Shown piece by piece: positions 1,716 through 59,625 of a stretch of 60,316 bases of DNA; the first letter of the stretch is position 1; each line of letters begins with the position of its first letter. The notes beneath the pieces were generated by a model that did no database searches, was not told the DNA's origin, and saw only the letters and a list, made by a program, of their open reading frames with translations. This DNA comes from an uncultured virus (IMG/VR IMGVR_UViG_3300043438_001900) (taxonomy: Duplodnaviria; Heunggongvirae; Uroviricota; Caudoviricetes). The translations under genes and the position numbers were made by a program. Location: the IMG/VR virus record IMGVR_UViG_3300043438_001900. One strand, written 5' to 3'.

Positions 1716-2122
1716 GGGGATGAATGGAATTGATTGGCGTTGGTATTGTACGTGGGCACGTAGTCGGATGTCATCTACGACTTAAATAAATGGTGGTAAC
1801 AATTAGACGGCAACGTTTACAACAACATGGAAGTAGCTGGTTTACTAGCAACTTCTAAGGTGGCAGCCTAACCGCTCCCACTGGACGGGTCGATGGACAT
1901 ATAACCTTGGAACAGAAGTCCTCACGGTGTGGTACCTACCCAAAAAGGTACAAATGGTCTCGTTCAGAGTGCTACCATAAAAAAAGTGAACTCGACACAG
2001 TTTCTGATAACGATGTCAAAATAGGAATCAGATATTTGTCGGTTGTGAATAATCGAATAAACGTGTAGTCCATTTATGGTATGGCGAACAAGACGAGGGT
2101 TCAAATCCCTCCATCTCCACCA
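1716..2122 (+). ncRNA. ssrA: tmRNA
   Basis: 5' GGGGATG pairs with 3' CATCTCC-A-CCA with G3:U wobble (Ala identity); T-arm GAGGG-TTCAAAT-CCCTC; tag ORF 1809-1871 GNVYNNMEVAGLLATSKVAA*; TACCTTTG promoter element at 1692-1699. Confidence 0.95.
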
Positions 2123-3803: not shown

Positions 3804-5222
3804 TTATTTTTTCCATTTGTATTTCATTGTGATATCTTCGTCACCCCTGTCACCAGTTTCTCTTTGTCTAACTTCAGTGTAACCTTTTTCTTCCAATGAT
3901 TTACTTAAAATGTAGTAGTCAGGTCCACTCAATTTAGGTCCTTTCCATACAACTACTTTTCCCCCTCTTCTTACAACCAAATTGTTACTCGATAAAAGTT
4001 CTTGTAATTTATTTTTATCCATTACAGGTTCCGCCGGTACCGGTGGAGGTGTAATTGGAGGAAGTGTTGAACCCGTAGTTGTTCCTGTTAATGTGGTTGT
4101 ACTACCTGTTGTTGTTCCTGTGGTAGCAGCAACCGGTGGTGCCGGAACAACAGTTGTTCCTTTACATTTGGCAATGATTGCATCATACGTTTCTTTTGTT
4201 AATTCTTTCGAACCACCAAGAGCAACCATTGTCTTAGGTCCAAAGTTACCTGTTTGTAAATCCTGAGACATACCTAAACAAGATTGGACTTCTCTAATTT
4301 GGTCACTACTACATCCATATGCCATTGGGAATGATGTACACGGTGTGTATTTAGTTGAACTTCCACCGCCAGTGTTTCCACCACCAGTGTTTCCACCACC
4401 ACCTTGTGTTCCATCATTTCCATCTGGGTCTAACACCACAACCGCTTCATTCGGATACATTTTACCGATTAAGTAAAGAACCGCAGCACCTGTGATACCC
4501 AATACCGCCAATGTTTTCCATTGACCTCGAGATAAACTAAACACTTTAATGTTACTTTGACCTAAAGATTTTGCATCCGCACTAAGAAGTTGACCACCTT
4601 TTACAATGTTAACTTTACCACCTTTTACTTTACTAAGAAGTGCCGCCCCTTGTTTACCTTCACCAACTAATTTTAAGTTGGTTTTAAGTAATGTGGTTGC
4701 TTTGTTATATTTTATCTTATCTAACGCTGCGATGGACTTAGTAATCTGTGAGGTTTTCTGACCCATTTTCACTACCTTAGCACCTTTTAAATTATCAATA
4801 TTACCAACTATTTGTTTACCTGCAGTTTGTAATTCTTTTTTAATAACATCATCTAAACTTTTACTTGCCTCTTTAATAAGGGTTTGTTTTTCAGCTGCAA
4901 CTAACTGTTTATAAGTTTTACCGAATTTTTTAATCGCCAAATCCTCAACTAAAACCGATAAACTTCTTTTATAACCCGGAGCGGCTCTAATTGCCGTCAA
5001 TGAAACTTGTTTAGAGTTTGATTTTGCTAACGTACCAACAACCTTACTAATTTCTTCCGATGCGTATTGTAATACTTTAGCGTCAGATGACCTAAATATA
5101 TTTTTTAAACCTGTAAGAACACTCTTACCAAATCTAGCCAAAAATGCGCCAATTCCGGCAAATTCATCTACCTGTTGCGGTGTGGTTTCCATTTCTTTAT
5201 TTTCCATTTCTTTATATTCCAT
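3804..5222 (-). CDS. putative virion protein with TM segment and peptidoglycan-binding-like domain
   Basis: Hydrophobic LAVLGITGAAVLYLI, Gly/Thr linkers, VQSCLG...GNFGPKT motif. Confidence 0.6.
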   Translation of the reverse strand: MEYKEMENKEMETTPQQVDEFAGIGAFLARFGKSVLTGLKNIFRSSDAKVLQYASEEISKVVGTLAKSNSKQVSLTAIRAAPGYKRSLSVLVEDLAIKKFGKTYKQLVAAEKQTLIKEASKSLDDVIKKELQTAGKQIVGNIDNLKGAKVVKMGQKTSQITKSIAALDKIKYNKATTLLKTNLKLVGEGKQGAALLSKVKGGKVNIVKGGQLLSADAKSLGQSNIKVFSLSRGQWKTLAVLGITGAAVLYLIGKMYPNEAVVVLDPDGNDGTQGGGGNTGGGNTGGGSSTKYTPCTSFPMAYGCSSDQIREVQSCLGMSQDLQTGNFGPKTMVALGGSKELTKETYDAIIAKCKGTTVVPAPPVAATTGTTTGSTTTLTGTTTGSTLPPITPPPVPAEPVMDKNKLQELLSSNNLVVRRGGKVVVWKGPKLSGPDYYILSKSLEEKGYTEVRQRETGDRGDEDITMKYKWKK

Positions 5223-5244
5223 TTTTTTATTTATTTTTTATTTT

Positions 5245-6375
5245 TTAACCAAAAACCCCCATCGCTTCAGCGTCCGCCATGATATCGGGGTTTACATCTG
5301 TTGATGTATTTTCATTATCTGTCGATGCAGTTGCACTTTGAGTTTTTTCTTTTGATGGTGTTAATGCCGTAACAACACCCGCCGTTGCCACACCTACCGC
5401 CACAGCCTTTGCCCCTTGTTTTGATAATAATTTACCTAAAAATGCTTGAAGTTTAGTTAGTACACTATCAATTGCGCGTAAAATAACTGAAATGACAGTA
5501 TCTCCCTTAAATTTCTTTGCCAACGAGTTACCTACGTTTTTTAATGTGCCTTTTAATGCTGGTATCTTAGTTGCTAATGAGTTTAACATTTTAACCATTG
5601 TAGGTGCTGCTTTTTTAACACCAACCTTTTTAATCATTGGAATTGATTTACTAAATACTTTACCAATTGCGGCGGTCAACACTAGAGACAATGCGTCCCC
5701 AATTAAAAACATGAAAGGTGATTCCTTTCTTTCGGGGTCTTTCGGGTCATAATCATTAGTTGCGATTTCATAGATATCTAATAACACAACAATAGCCCAA
5801 ACAATTGCGTTTGTTTTTACCGCAAGTATTGAAACAACAACGTCAATAACAATACCGACACCTGTGTATAATCCACGACGAACCCATCTTAAAAATGGTA
5901 GAACTCCGTTTTTAAACACCCACTCCATACCTTTCATGATTGTACTACCGACATTCTTGACTCCTGATTTTATACCATCCCATGCAGTTGATGCTCCCGA
6001 TTTAATAGTATCCCAAAGACCTTCGTTAATTATTTCACCGTTTTTAATCCATTCATAAACCATATCTTTAGACCACTTAGTGTTCTCAAGAATATTGTTT
6101 ACTTCACTATGAACACTTTCAGTGATTGTATCACCAAGTTTCGTAAGGGATTCTTTTATTAACTCGTTGAATACATGGGTATTTTCCCATATACTTCCAA
6201 TTGATTTTCCATCTCCACCAGCAACAAAAACCTCGTCCATCATGATAAGGTATTTGTTATTTTCAGTTAATACAAAATCAAACACAAAATCTCTTTTTTC
6301 AACAAGACCATACATCTTTTTGATGTTCTGTTTTTCAGACTCTGTAATTACGATTTTTCTTTGATTTGAGTACAT
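5245..6375 (-). CDS. putative virion/ejection protein with hydrophobic helices
   Basis: N-terminal KIVITESE motif, several amphipathic or TM helices, TATTTATA upstream. Confidence 0.6.
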   Translation of the reverse strand: MYSNQRKIVITESEKQNIKKMYGLVEKRDFVFDFVLTENNKYLIMMDEVFVAGGDGKSIGSIWENTHVFNELIKESLTKLGDTITESVHSEVNNILENTKWSKDMVYEWIKNGEIINEGLWDTIKSGASTAWDGIKSGVKNVGSTIMKGMEWVFKNGVLPFLRWVRRGLYTGVGIVIDVVVSILAVKTNAIVWAIVVLLDIYEIATNDYDPKDPERKESPFMFLIGDALSLVLTAAIGKVFSKSIPMIKKVGVKKAAPTMVKMLNSLATKIPALKGTLKNVGNSLAKKFKGDTVISVILRAIDSVLTKLQAFLGKLLSKQGAKAVAVGVATAGVVTALTPSKEKTQSATASTDNENTSTDVNPDIMADAEAMGVFG

Positions 6376-27876: not shown

Positions 27877-27930
27877 TAAAAAAACCCTCATAAGAGGGTT
27901 TAATTTTTTATAAGGTATTCAAATTGGTTA

Positions 27931-28149
27931 TTAAAAGAATCTTTTAAAACTTGCTTTGATTTTTTCAACTGATTCGTTCACTAAATCATCAGTCTCATTT
28001 TCAATACCGTCTTCAGAATCGCATTCCTCACACACTTCCTCTTCGTTTTGTTCCATTTCAACTGATTCGTCAGTTTCTTGTGTAACGAATGAATGACGAC
28101 GTTCCATAATCATTTTCAATTGACTTTCTGTGATTTTAATTTTTTTCAT
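27931..28149 (-). CDS. small acidic putative virion protein
   Basis: KIKITESQL motif; TATTTATA upstream. Confidence 0.65.
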   Translation of the reverse strand: MKKIKITESQLKMIMERRHSFVTQETDESVEMEQNEEEVCEECDSEDGIENETDDLVNESVEKIKASFKRFF

Positions 28150-28194
28150 TTTTTCGGTTTCTATATAAATATCAAGTTATTGTAAAAGATTAAA

Positions 28195-28707
28195 TTACTT
28201 AAAGTAACCATCGATTCCAAATTTACGTACAAGTCTATTTCTTCTTTTACATGCTGGATTCTGTCTCGTACCTCCACGGAAGATTAATTTACCCAATTTT
28301 ACAATAATAATAATCGCAATTAAACCGGCAACAACTATAACCGCAACCGCAGGTACTGCCACTCCGGCAATTAAAATTGTCGCACCAACTTGTTCTTGAA
28401 CAACCGGTTGTTGTGTTATTGGTTGTTCAGGTTGTTTTTTAATTGATTTAACCTGTTTTAAGACCATAATAAGGTCATTAACATCCATTGTATCCAATTT
28501 AGATTTAATGTTGTTTACAACGTCCGCATACTCCGCTGGTGGTTCCTCAATTGGACACTCAGGTGATACTTCCATTTTCTCTTCGGGTGTTAATACGATT
28601 CCTGCCTGAGCCAACGCATTGTCAAATTGTTGTTCTTCTGTTGATTCGGTATAAAGTCCTCTGATACGGTTTCTTTCTTCTTCTGTTAATGTAAATTTTT
28701 GTCCCAT
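28195..28707 (-). CDS. TM-containing putative virion protein
   Basis: FTLTEEE motif; C-terminal TM; similar layout to 29882-30511. Confidence 0.6.
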   Translation of the reverse strand: MGQKFTLTEEERNRIRGLYTESTEEQQFDNALAQAGIVLTPEEKMEVSPECPIEEPPAEYADVVNNIKSKLDTMDVNDLIMVLKQVKSIKKQPEQPITQQPVVQEQVGATILIAGVAVPAVAVIVVAGLIAIIIIVKLGKLIFRGGTRQNPACKRRNRLVRKFGIDGYFK

Positions 28708-28732
28708 ATTAATGTTTATTATAAATATCATA

Positions 28733-28795
28733 AAAATGGGGATAGAAGTAGCGAATTCCTATCCCCGTGTCCGTGACTAGTCCCGGTCCTAAAGT
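28733..28795 (-). ncRNA. 3'-UTR element complementary to 23S rRNA H69-H70 region, ending in a terminator hairpin
   Basis: TTAGGACCG and hairpin-loop TTCGCTAC are complements of CGGUCCUAA and GUAGCGAA. Confidence 0.5.
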
Positions 28796-28818
28796 GAGGT
28801 TTTCAAACCTCAACTATC

Positions 28819-29763
28819 TTAATTTGTCGGTTGCTGTACAAGACCTGGTGTCACTGTTTCAGGATTTGATACGGTTGGTTTCAACGGTTCCATTGGTTTT
28901 AGTTCCTCAGTATCTCTTGATAAAAATTTACGTCCATTAGTGTTCCAAGCTTTTTGAGTTCTTGGACCAAAAATACCGTATCCCTTACCATTTTGACCTT
29001 TATTAATAATACCACCATTATATCCCACGGCCCAACCTTTAGCATTTACGTCTAACCAATCTTGGAATAATTTAATTCCATTGGCATCTTTTAATTCTTT
29101 TGGTGTTGGTATCAATACTTTTTTAGGTGCAACTTTAAATTCTGGGTCTTTACATGTGTAATTTGCCATCGTTTTATTTGCCAACATTTTTCTACCGTTA
29201 GCAAAATACGTAACACCATTTATTAAGTATGACATTGTACCATCACTATATTTTTGTTGTTTTGCACCTTTAAATCCCGTTACACATGGATACTTTAACC
29301 AAGGGTCAGTCGCGGGTGCGGCAGGTGCTGCTACAGGTGTCGCTAATAATTTGAAACTATTGGTTTTAAAATACTTAACAGATGGTTTGTATTTGTCGGC
29401 ATTTGTTTCATAGGTATTATTTACCCCAATACTTTTCAAGTGTTTAGAAACCATTTCCACGGTGTATAAATTATCCACGCCCATATCACTATTAATCCAT
29501 CCCGCAACATCTAACTCTGAATATAGTTTTTTAAGTTCGGCATTTACTAATGAAAATTGTGCAGCGTCTTTAATCTTCAAAACTCCATTTCTAAATTTTG
29601 TGGGGTCAGTACCGGGACCACTAACTGATGCGTGTATCTCTTTCGCGATACCAATATTTATGTCCACGGCTTGTTCATTTAATGGATTACCATATCCATG
29701 TTTCTTATGCATATTAAGGATTTCTTCCTTTTCTGACTCTGTTAGTAAAAAATTTTTATACAT
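28819..29763 (-). CDS. putative virion protein: annexin-like repeat + PG-binding-like C-terminus
   Basis: IH.SVSG.GTD (annexin GxGTD-like), FQDWLD...GIFGPRT..AW; FLLTESE motif. Confidence 0.55.
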   Translation of the reverse strand: MYKNFLLTESEKEEILNMHKKHGYGNPLNEQAVDINIGIAKEIHASVSGPGTDPTKFRNGVLKIKDAAQFSLVNAELKKLYSELDVAGWINSDMGVDNLYTVEMVSKHLKSIGVNNTYETNADKYKPSVKYFKTNSFKLLATPVAAPAAPATDPWLKYPCVTGFKGAKQQKYSDGTMSYLINGVTYFANGRKMLANKTMANYTCKDPEFKVAPKKVLIPTPKELKDANGIKLFQDWLDVNAKGWAVGYNGGIINKGQNGKGYGIFGPRTQKAWNTNGRKFLSRDTEELKPMEPLKPTVSNPETVTPGLVQQPTN

Positions 29764-29881
29764 TGTTTTAGTTTTTTTATAAATATTTAATTTTATGGGG
29801 TTATCATCCGTTTAACCGAATAAAATATTATTAAAGAAAAGAAAATAGACAAATAAACCGTCTGTGATATCAATCTCTTCA

Positions 29882-33381: not shown

Positions 33382-33813
33382 TTAAATTAGTTCGATGGTG
33401 TTAATCTTATCACCTTGTCTGATGTTGTCAATTATATCCAACCCTTCCACAACCTTACCGAAACAGGTATGGTTTCTATCGAGGTGTTGTGTTCCTTGTC
33501 TACCGTGGCAGATGAAAAACTGTGAACCACCGGTATTTCTACCAGCGTGGGCCATAGATAACACACCTTTATCGTGGAATTGTTTATCGGCGTTTACTTC
33601 GCACTCGATGGTATAACCGGGTCCACCGTTACCAATACCGTTAGGACAACCTCCCTGAATAACAAAGTTAGGGATAACTCTATGGAAGTTTAATCCATCA
33701 TAGAATTTCAAACCAATTAGTTTAAGGAAGTTACTTACGGTGATAGGGGTTTCGTTGTCGTACAACTCAGCAACCATGTCACCTCTGTCTGTGGAAATTT
33801 TTACTTTACTCAT
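33382..33813 (-). CDS. cyclophilin-type peptidyl-prolyl isomerase
   Basis: FYDGLNFHRVIPNFVIQGG, LSMAHAGRNTGGSQFFI, HLD..HT.FG.VVEG. Confidence 0.95.
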   Translation of the reverse strand: MSKVKISTDRGDMVAELYDNETPITVSNFLKLIGLKFYDGLNFHRVIPNFVIQGGCPNGIGNGGPGYTIECEVNADKQFHDKGVLSMAHAGRNTGGSQFFICHGRQGTQHLDRNHTCFGKVVEGLDIIDNIRQGDKINTIELI

Positions 33814-34924: not shown

Positions 34925-36196
34925 TTAATAGTTATTCGATAATTTAAGGTTGTCTTCGGCAATCATAAGGTCCATATTATCGAAGGTTGTGGAACCTCCT
35001 TTTGAATGGGGTTTATTCTTATGGTTCCCATGGACTCTCTTTCCGTTGGTGGACTGCAATGGGGTAATAACCTCGGTTGTACCATCCAAACGATTAATAA
35101 CACCTCCAGTCTCAATGCACTTGGCAATCTTATCCTTCTCTGTAAAGGTCCTAACACTATCGAGGGTATAAAAGAAATCAGATACAAAGGGAATCATATC
35201 GTTATATATGGTGTTGAACTTAACTATATGGAATTGTACAATGTTCCTATTGATATTGGCCCAATTGGAATCTGATGGGTTGTAGTATGTAGAATCAATT
35301 CTGTGGTTCTCCAATTCAAGGTACTTGTTAACAAAATCTTGAATTGTATCTTTCTTTAGGACCGAGTTATATGAACGGTCCATATCTAACAGATACATGA
35401 ATAGATTAAATGAAAAGGACTTGGTAATATCTGAACCTGTTTGATGTATCAGTTGAACACATATACTCCACGTCTTGAGAGTATCCAAGAATTGTTTCTC
35501 GTTATATATAACCGAACTTTTAAATAGGTTGTTTAAGTTGGTATTGGTAATAGTACTTCCTTTGGATTGGTGATATAATAAGAAGTGACTCATAAGTTCC
35601 AAATCCTTCATCCTTGGAAAGGTGACACCTTTAATGAGTTTGGTTGTCTCACTATAGGTATTACCCCATTTACGAATAAAATCAGATATAATACCATGAC
35701 ACGCGTTTCGTTTCTCTTGTTTGTTCCAACTCTCACCACTGTTAAGGTATGATGCAATATCATGTAAATCTAACTTGGTGGCGTTATTAATGATTACCAC
35801 AGAAATGGGAATGTTAAAGAAGTCCCACACATCGTCAGGGACATCATTCCAGTTAACCTCATCATGTAACTTCATAAGATAACGGGTTCTATTACCCCCA
35901 TCTATTGAAACATATCTTACACCCTGATTATGTAGTTCAGAAAAGTATTGGTGGTCATAAGTACTCTTTGTGGTTTGTGCAAGAGTCATACAACCCTGAA
36001 CATCCGCCATTACAATGTTACTTACATCTTTTCCTAATAATAGACACTCCCTATATTCGACCCCATTACGTTTTGTCCACACTTGTCTTCGTTGAATCGA
36101 TTCATCATAACAAATTTTCTTCCCTAATTGTAGAAAATTTTTAATACTCATGTCTTGTCTCATCTTACCAATTGGTATAGTTCTGTTTGTTTCCAT
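34925..36196 (-). CDS. GmrSD-like protein: DUF262/ParB-like N-terminus + HNH C-terminus
   Basis: QRR.VW, SIDGGNRT, LNSG..W..QE.RNA; H..P.SKGG.T...N......N. Confidence 0.7.
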   Translation of the reverse strand: METNRTIPIGKMRQDMSIKNFLQLGKKICYDESIQRRQVWTKRNGVEYRECLLLGKDVSNIVMADVQGCMTLAQTTKSTYDHQYFSELHNQGVRYVSIDGGNRTRYLMKLHDEVNWNDVPDDVWDFFNIPISVVIINNATKLDLHDIASYLNSGESWNKQEKRNACHGIISDFIRKWGNTYSETTKLIKGVTFPRMKDLELMSHFLLYHQSKGSTITNTNLNNLFKSSVIYNEKQFLDTLKTWSICVQLIHQTGSDITKSFSFNLFMYLLDMDRSYNSVLKKDTIQDFVNKYLELENHRIDSTYYNPSDSNWANINRNIVQFHIVKFNTIYNDMIPFVSDFFYTLDSVRTFTEKDKIAKCIETGGVINRLDGTTEVITPLQSTNGKRVHGNHKNKPHSKGGSTTFDNMDLMIAEDNLKLSNNY

Positions 36197-59504: not shown

Positions 59505-59625
59505 TAGTCAGGACAGGAATCGAACCTATAACCAGTTTTCTAAGCCCTACGTGCAGGATTTTCACTGCCTCGTACTGGTGTCTAATCGAGCATACACAGC
59601 GTTTAACCAATTCCGCCACCTGACT
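59505..59625 (-). tRNA. tRNA-like RNA (121 nt) with non-canonical, expanded anticodon/variable region
   Basis: Acceptor AGTCAGG/CCTGACT-A; D arm TGGCGGAATTGGTTAAACGC; T arm ATAGG-TTCGATT-CCTGT; no 7-nt anticodon loop. Confidence 0.7.

Follow-up and report, generated by a model that had tools for sequence, protein, structure and literature searches.

Bacterial small RNAs such as CpxQ, SroC and DapZ are derived from the 3′ untranslated regions (UTRs) of mRNAs and act by base pairing, and antisense RNAs such as CopA/CopT and RNA I/RNA II present their bases in hairpin loops. To our knowledge, the Bacteroidota, the probable host phylum of the phage analyzed here, lack Hfq, and we know of no C/D or H/ACA guide system in bacteria or phages. 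Guide RNAs of the C/D and H/ACA types, which pair with rRNA in archaea and eukaryotes and have helix 69 among their targets, are described in excerpts of two papers (PMC4644070, PMC2377435). Small RNAs encoded by phages have been described too, and excerpts of two further papers deal with the anti-sRNAs of EHEC prophages (PMC4104026) and with 24B_1 (PMC4426718). A full-text literature search did not return, in the excerpts that it gave, a phage RNA said to pair with 23S rRNA.

We analyzed a 60,316-nt stretch of viral DNA, hereafter referred to as the window, which corresponds to bases 4736-65051 of a 310,691-bp IMG/VR virus record that is rated 93% complete and has no 23S gene of its own. An original prediction, made from the letters of the window, held that the 3′ UTR of one of its genes contains a split antisense to the H69-H70 region of 23S rRNA. 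We wanted to know how the gene layout, the conservation and the rRNA likeness of this element bear on that proposal.

Genomic setting and predicted structure of the element

The G+C content of the window is 31-40%, and the phage DNA is present in 24 runs, all of which are lake or freshwater DNA metagenomes. The window encodes a cyclophilin-type peptidyl-prolyl isomerase (33382-33813, minus strand; Pfam E 5e-42), which looks host-derived and hints at the host phylum. The best 80 genomic relatives of this gene are 62-72% identical to it, and all but two are from Bacteroidota, as judged by their record titles. Because of these relatives and the origin of the runs, we infer that the phage is a jumbo phage of lake Bacteroidota. 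A full-length tmRNA gene is located at 1716-2122 (plus strand; Rfam 89.6 bits), for which ARAGORN gives the tag peptide GNVYNNMEVAGLLATSKVAA. In addition, a 121-nt stretch (59505-59625, minus strand) matches the whole Rfam tRNA model with 37.3 bits; ARAGORN made no call for it, and it may be a tRNA with an insertion or an intron.

Most of the proteins encoded near the element have no family match, and the proteins encoded by the two flanking genes (Table 1) do not match any family in Pfam or PHROG and thus lend no support to the originally proposed designation as a late gene. The 314-aa protein has 112 metagenome relatives, all unnamed, and its C-terminal part resembles, by eye, a peptidoglycan-binding repeat. 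No relatives of the 170-aa protein were found among the viral_contigs. An in-frame ATG at 28731 was rejected as initiation codon of this gene, since in the related contig L008, described below, the codon is missing and the position is out of frame.

Table 1. Features of the element and its immediate surroundings (window coordinates)
Feature	Position	Strand	Remarks
Upstream gene, 314 aa	28819..29763	-	stop codon TAA at 28819-28821
Conserved block, 97 nt	28731..28827	-	2 differences from L008
Hairpin 1, 7-bp stem and 4-nt loop	28795..28812	-	6 nt past the stop codon; -7.3 kcal/mol
Linker, 28 nt	28767..28794	-	G+C-rich, mostly unpaired in the predicted fold; carries a 9-mer antisense to 23S 1920-1928
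Hairpin 2, terminator stem-loop, 10 bp including one G-U	28738..28766	-	-15.2 kcal/mol
U-rich tail, ATTTTTAT	28730..28737	-	directly 3′ of hairpin 2
Promoter-like motif, ATATTTATA	28720..28728	-	directly after the U-rich tail; 12 nt before the ATG at 28707
Downstream gene, 170 aa	28195..28707	-	one hydrophobic membrane-type stretch; ATG at 28707 kept in L008

The original prediction was built on two plus-strand strings, GTAGCGAATTCCT and CCGTGACTAGTCCCGGTCCTAA. These are indeed located at 28748-28760 and 28771-28792, respectively, and each of them occurs once in the 310,691-bp genome. The ORF layout and the predicted fold also agree with its view that the transcribed and folded strand is the minus strand, and that the stretch constitutes the 3′ UTR of the upstream gene. 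In the predicted minus-strand fold, one antisense piece lies in the loop of the terminator hairpin and the other in the exposed linker, as had been proposed. The loop of hairpin 2 has 9 nt (28748-28756) and carries an 8-mer antisense to 23S 1930-1937. The 9-mer of the linker corresponds to 28784-28792 and gives 12 bp when extended with one G-U pair; the remainder of the linker is partly antisense to the rest of helix 69, and a palindrome, GACTAGTC, is present within the linker. The G-U pair of hairpin 2 exists only in the minus-strand RNA, the plus strand having an A-C mismatch at this place in the window and L008 alike. Since G-U pairs would be A-C mismatches on the plus strand, the minus-strand RNA is the folded molecule.

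The layout is that of an intrinsic terminator: past the stop codon of the upstream gene, a stable G+C-rich stem-loop is followed by a U-rich tail, and the sequence after hairpin 2 reads AUUUUUAU on the minus strand. A terminator consensus scan made no call for hairpin 2 because the scan has a loop limit of 8 and the loop here has 9 nt. The whole fold is unexceptional (z -1.8), and 10 of 200 shuffled sequences fold equally well. None of the Rfam covariance models matched the stretch at its gathering score; five Rfam matches had E values of 4.3-8.7, all of them far under gathering and none of them to rRNA. Guides of group I/II introns and of the bridge-RNA type were considered and rejected, there being no room, no Rfam match and no adjoining enzyme gene.

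The promoter-like motif ATATTTATA has 30 copies in the genome. For 24 of these, an ORF of at least 60 aa that starts with ATG is present on the same strand within 45 nt, mostly at 10-19 nt, and for the reverse complement of the motif an ORF is within reach of only 10 of the 64 copies. Copies of the motif precede all three consecutive genes here; besides the one at 28720-28728, copies are located at window ~28161-28172 and ~29770-29780, both on the minus strand. The motif is probably a phage promoter element that gives rise to very short leaders. One copy lies directly downstream of the element, which therefore forms the 3′ terminus of a transcription unit and would end one transcript just before the next begins. 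No copy is present ahead of the element, and therefore no separate promoter was seen for it. On the plus strand, 28720-28727 reads TATAAATA, which we take to be reminiscent of a T4 late promoter. This candidate promoter was rejected because it is the reverse complement of the minus-strand motif, is not kept in L008 and, in this orientation, rarely precedes ORFs.

Conservation and distribution of the element

A metagenome contig of a related phage, L008, is ~81% identical to the window over 28066-29681. Between 28827 and 28731 (97 nt), the two sequences differ at only two positions, which are adjacent. The changes in L008, from TC to CT, swap one G-C and one G-U pair in hairpin 2, so that all 10 pairs of this hairpin are kept on the minus strand. 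Identity with L008 is 68%, 76% and 77% at the third codon positions of the adjoining genes and 66% and 70% in the other intergenic stretches of the alignment; the stem and the loop of a neighbouring plain terminator, which lies upstream of the 314-aa gene, have both changed. Only 73 of 4,493 segments of 97 nt contain two or fewer differences. All but two of these (71) are located in a methyltransferase gene and the other two are the element, which is the only non-coding stretch among them. A wider count of 7 differences in 99 columns has a P value of 3.7e-6 at a neutral rate of 25%. Moreover, the conserved tract matches the borders of the element: its beginning is no more than 6 nt away from the stop codon, it fades out past the U-rich tail, and the end of the gene just upstream is scrambled.

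On these alignments, all 97 nt appear to be under purifying selection. The comparison involves a single full relative, L008, together with one contig that is visible in part, and a short, recent recombination tract could mimic selection; identity between the window and L008 is a mosaic that ranges from 0 to 100% along 5 kb. At ~5150-6090, L008 contains a gene-sized insertion of ~900 nt relative to window ~27880-27905, where the window has only a bidirectional terminator hairpin (27882-27901).

A third version of the element and a variant locus were placed on the region using Logan contigs of four lake runs. The third version is present on a 415-nt contig of run X23, and on one X22 contig, and covers 28776-28820 with one substitution and one deletion. 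The deletion removes one base of the run adjoining the 9-mer and leaves ten Watson-Crick pairs with 23S. The loop letters are kept in this version, and the stem half, the spacer and both flanks differ; as judged by eye from its visible letters, the upstream flank of the X23 contig does not resemble the C-terminus of any of the six homologues closest to the 314-aa protein. The presence of the same loop and linker on a changed stem in another context suggests that they constitute a portable unit. None of the three carriers, which are the window, L008 and the metagenome contig, has lost the antisense bases, and the rest of the block is conserved in L008 as well.

The variant locus, which is ~90% identical in the 170-aa gene, is more abundant and was present in all four runs; at 28727 it departs from the window and runs into a plain, C-rich hairpin that is accompanied by a T-run. 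At three of four more distant homologous loci, L011, L015 and L016, the gene is followed by a plain terminator instead of the element, and neither the element nor a clear hairpin was found at the fourth, L010. The expectation of the original prediction, that homologous loci would conserve the rRNA-complementary bases, was therefore borne out among the three carriers but not at these other loci, from which the element is absent. Because relatives carry a plain terminator at this place, the element is optional or dispensable. Neither motif was present at 28 other loci that were examined. Searches of viral_contigs and genome_contigs with exact and gapped patterns of the element, the window's own record being excluded, gave no matches, and comparison of the element DNA with 401 Bacteroidota genomes gave only chance-level matches of 15-38 nt (best per-genome E 0.0015). 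In the phage genome, the element is single-copy according to nhmmer and BLAST, and the other short hits are only to its A+T-rich, promoter-like tail.

Likeness to 23S rRNA and its significance

Comparison with the E. coli sequence (L007) confirmed that the 23S string on which the original prediction was based is exact for rrlH 1908-1943. The exact words common to 23S and the element are CGGTCCTAA (1920-1928) and GTAGCGAA (1930-1937), and the rRNA-like segments of the plus strand show 20/25 and 13/14 identities by BLAST. Apart from one base 25 nt upstream of H69, the 80 nt around these words are identical in the 23S genes of five Bacteroidota genomes, and 23S 1897-1973 is the longest block common to E. 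coli and three full-length Bacteroidota 23S genes. The computed pairing at 23S 1920-1931 consists of 9 Watson-Crick pairs, or of 12 pairs with one G-U, and that at 1930-1943 of 8 pairs, or of 13 with a one-base bulge; an extra 4+4 pairs are possible between the linker and the rest of H69. When an 18-nt loop query was used, the H69-H71 region was the best site in three whole 23S sequences (-19.5 kcal/mol). The longest continuous Watson-Crick antisense stretches are 9 and 8 nt long and permuted, there being no continuous antisense of ~17 nt to 1920-1940. Because their order is permuted with respect to a continuous antisense, the two pieces cannot form one helix.

These data allow the tentative reading, which was the main idea of the original prediction and which we consider rather unlikely, that the linker and the terminator loop base-pair with positions 1908-1943 of the host 23S, from helix 69 into the beginning of helix 71, as long as this region is still unfolded, either in late precursors of the 50S subunit or as free rRNA. 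In consequence, which is no more probable than the pairing itself, the mRNA end would be tethered to the large subunit, or maturation or subunit joining would be disturbed. Several of the observations above are in line with such pairing: the complementarity is real and lies at the best 23S site for the loop query, the target is invariant in the likely host phylum, both antisense pieces are in parts that are predicted to be unpaired and are kept by all three carriers, and ten Watson-Crick pairs are retained after the one-base deletion in the third carrier. The shortness of the helices and the permuted order of the pieces argue against it, as does the existence of close relatives without the element. 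In addition, rRNA vastly outnumbers a single mRNA 3′ end, and 9-12 bp are too short for RNase III.

Whether the match counts for the pairing depends on how much of 23S is regarded as target. In a BLAST of 23S against the genome, the pieces rank ~140th (E 388) and ~2,600th (E 7,557) among 29,727 hits. We also counted paired exact words, one of 9 nt or more and the other of 8 nt or more, that are separated by a gap of up to 15 nt in 23S and located within 60 nt in the genome; both orders and both strands were allowed. The real genome contains 220 such pairs and the reversed genome 158, and the mean over 40 block-shuffled genomes is 164. After local extension, the observed pair has a score of 22, a value that is reached or exceeded by 13 of the 220 real pairs. 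Pairs scoring 22 or more have a mean of 2.85 per shuffled genome, are present at least once in 56 of 60 shuffles, and number four in the reversed genome. If the target is limited to 23S 1881-1990, this score is reached in 27 of 400 shuffled genomes (6.8% per genome), which by simple arithmetic scales to roughly 1% per 60-kb window. When the 86-nt element itself was shuffled 200,000 times, a seed pair was obtained 5,365 times (2.7%) anywhere in 23S and 233 times (0.12%) in the 1881-1990 block. Chance levels of 0.12% per element and 6.8% per genome thus speak for the pairing if only the H69-H71 block is counted, but the match is ordinary across the whole of 23S. The 23S likeness is real, yet alone it is not beyond chance across the whole 23S.

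Duplex energies argue in the same direction. The best duplex of the linker with Bacteroidota 23S, at helix 69, has an energy of -30.0 kcal/mol, versus a mean of -30.1 (sd 2.0) for 100 shuffled linkers, and 57 of these 100 pair with 23S as well as the real linker does. Whole-23S duplex energies obtained with long queries are dominated by large loops and are uninformative. Also weighing against the pairing with 23S, the linker has 13 contiguous complementary bases at window 35350-35375 (minus strand), inside ORF 34925-36196; as computed, the phage's own transcript of this ORF would be an equally good target for the linker. Four other split matches to the same 23S block, at window-relative positions 140175-140240, 226123-226163, 167861-167912 and 4767-4794, were rejected as elements because they lie inside ORFs and consist of weak, A+T-rich words.

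The 18-mer corresponding to 23S 1920-1937, taken from L007, is found at eight viral loci, five of which are not rRNA genes. L122 and L123 are rRNA genes and L117 has rRNA on one side only; L120 and L121 contain 19 rRNA-like bases each. In L116 (401-442) and L118 (398-440), ~42 bases that are nearly identical to 23S 1920-1961 are present in non-rRNA surroundings, and L116 has the same one-A deletion (GCGAATTCC) as the window and a hairpin that follows on the sense strand. In the remaining contig, L119 (380-590, plus strand; 4.4 kb), a perfect antisense of 21 nt to 1920-1940 precedes a strong 10-bp hairpin with a run of seven T's, and a tRNA-Ile(TAT) gene lies ~90 nt downstream on the same strand. 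From its sequence, this stretch looks like a stand-alone gene for an anti-23S small RNA, which favours the view that the element, too, pairs with 23S. Control 18-mers were taken from other invariant 23S blocks. That of 2490-2507 lacks rRNA-like flanks at about 20 of the 23 loci where it occurs, for the most part at the two ends of contigs of 2-3 kb, and the 18-mer 2597-2614 lies outside rRNA genes at one of four loci. Since the control 18-mers also occur outside rRNA genes, this crude test with three probes reveals no special excess for H69-H71 in viral contigs, and to that extent it goes against the pairing. In several of the IMG/VR contigs L124-L146 (2.1-3.1 kb), the 18-mer 2490-2507 is present as inverted copies at both ends; these may be an artefact of assembly or a terminal repeat of an unusual kind.

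Among some 250,000 windows, coincidences of this kind are bound to number in the thousands, and the H69-H71 stretch is the rRNA string that a reader is most likely to recognize. The case shows how easily the most familiar rRNA string yields chance "antisense" findings, and the counts above give the control numbers that are to be expected.

Possible function and comparison with known systems

On balance, conservation and context make it somewhat probable that the stretch is a conserved, portable RNA module of the 3′ end, in which a terminator is combined with exposed linker and loop bases that have a putative sequence-specific partner. Hairpin 2 would stop transcription of the upstream gene and would leave a doubly hairpinned 3′ fragment of ~95 nt, either stable on the mRNA or cut off from it, as in small RNAs derived from 3′ UTRs. 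This fragment would then act through its exposed linker and loop by pairing with, or by being bound by, the putative partner; candidates are 23S 1908-1943, the phage mRNA site in ORF 34925-36196, or a protein. Given that some relatives lack the element, its contribution beyond that of a plain terminator is dispensable. A bolder form of the idea, in our opinion doubtful, is that the module is a portable device whose invariant linker and loop clamp unfolded 23S 1908-1943 of Bacteroidota hosts, a universally conserved stretch from helix 69 to helix 71 in the intersubunit bridge region. It would then be one split-guide representative of a broader group of phage RNAs, so far undescribed, with a direct action on host rRNA.

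In a simpler scenario, the stretch would be a terminator only: hairpin 2 terminates, hairpin 1 protects the mRNA end, the likeness to rRNA is due to chance, and the identity with L008 stems from a recent short-tract exchange. The rRNA match is within chance, and the mosaic identity between the two phages would fit such an exchange. Ordinary terminators are present at the same place in relatives, which indicates that termination is the shared function. We nevertheless regard this scenario as improbable, because the conserved tract coincides with the borders of the element next to a scrambled gene end, because the only changes with respect to L008 keep the pairing, and because the neighbouring plain terminator drifts in stem and loop. 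Furthermore, the third version keeps the loop and the linker but neither the stem nor the flanks, which a terminator alone would not need.

A loop that is conserved although its stem varies, accompanied by a conserved linear element, is what protein-binding hairpins usually show, and the module is located exactly between two transcription units. A phage or host RNA-binding protein might hence read the loop and the linker, or a protein might recognize the GACTAGTC palindrome as DNA, and tune read-through into, or expression of, the next gene, but this is very unlikely in our estimation. A site of this type would resemble nut/boxB or RAT-type sites, an equally remote prospect. No candidate protein was identified, the next gene has its own promoter-like motif, and by eye the element sequence does not contain an antiterminator pairing of more than 5 bp.

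A homing site of the I-CeuI type (LAGLIDADG) presumably spans ~1917-1940 of 23S rDNA. The idea that the plus strand, at the RNA or DNA level, imitates helix 69 and this site as a decoy for a nuclease, as originally suggested, or for an rRNA-modifying enzyme is barely credible: the plus strand is the rRNA-like strand and in L116 a hairpin on the sense strand comes after a sense-like copy of 42 nt, but the decoy found no support because the two halves are non-contiguous (10 nt apart) and in reverse order, so that they form no continuous recognition site, and hairpin 2 has an A-C mismatch on the plus strand, and the flanking genes, the U-rich tail and the promoter-like motif are all on the minus strand.

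If the conserved 3′-end module is a terminator with a small 3′-end RNA and nothing else, it adds one more conserved non-coding element to those of uncultured jumbo phages. For annotation purposes, it marks a transcription-unit boundary beside a newly recognized promoter-like motif. If the pairing with 23S were true, the RNA of a bacterial virus would act directly on the ribosome's own RNA, which would bear on how phages take over translation.

The element shares with intrinsic (Rho-independent) terminators a 10-bp G+C-rich stem-loop, a U-rich tail, and a position between a gene end and the next promoter-like motif. Unlike ordinary terminators, it includes a second hairpin, and the conservation of its loop and of its 28-nt linker greatly exceeds what neutrality would predict. 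Like 3′-UTR-derived small RNAs of the CpxQ, SroC and DapZ type, it has a 5′ hairpin, a conserved single-stranded stretch and the terminator of the parent mRNA, and no promoter of its own was seen; the conserved linker and loop, predicted to be mostly unpaired, go together with the terminator that is shared with the mRNA. It differs from that type in that part of its presumed seed is in the terminator loop, and in that the element is known from sequence, with targets that are computed.

The presence of conserved bases in a hairpin loop is a feature that the element shares with CopA/CopT and RNA I/RNA II, and its phage origin is one that it shares with the EHEC prophage anti-sRNAs and 24B_1 as excerpted. 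Those loop-presenting antisense and phage RNAs act on mRNAs or sRNAs, and none is reported to pair with rRNA, in contrast to what is considered here. The C/D and H/ACA guides, as far as the excerpts on them go, resemble the element in having short bipartite antisense stretches to conserved rRNA. Unlike these guides, the element has no C/D or ACA boxes by eye, and its two antisense pieces are in the order opposite to that of an H/ACA pocket.

Finally, the element and the L119 stretch have no sequence likeness beyond the antisense bases, and no look-alike of either was present in the indexed collection of windows. Both are antisense to the same 23S stretch, both have this antisense ahead of a terminator hairpin, and both come from uncultured lake phages. 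However, L119 contains a continuous, perfect 21-nt antisense in what looks like a stand-alone gene, whereas the antisense of the element consists of 9+8 nt, split and permuted, inside the 3′ end of an mRNA.
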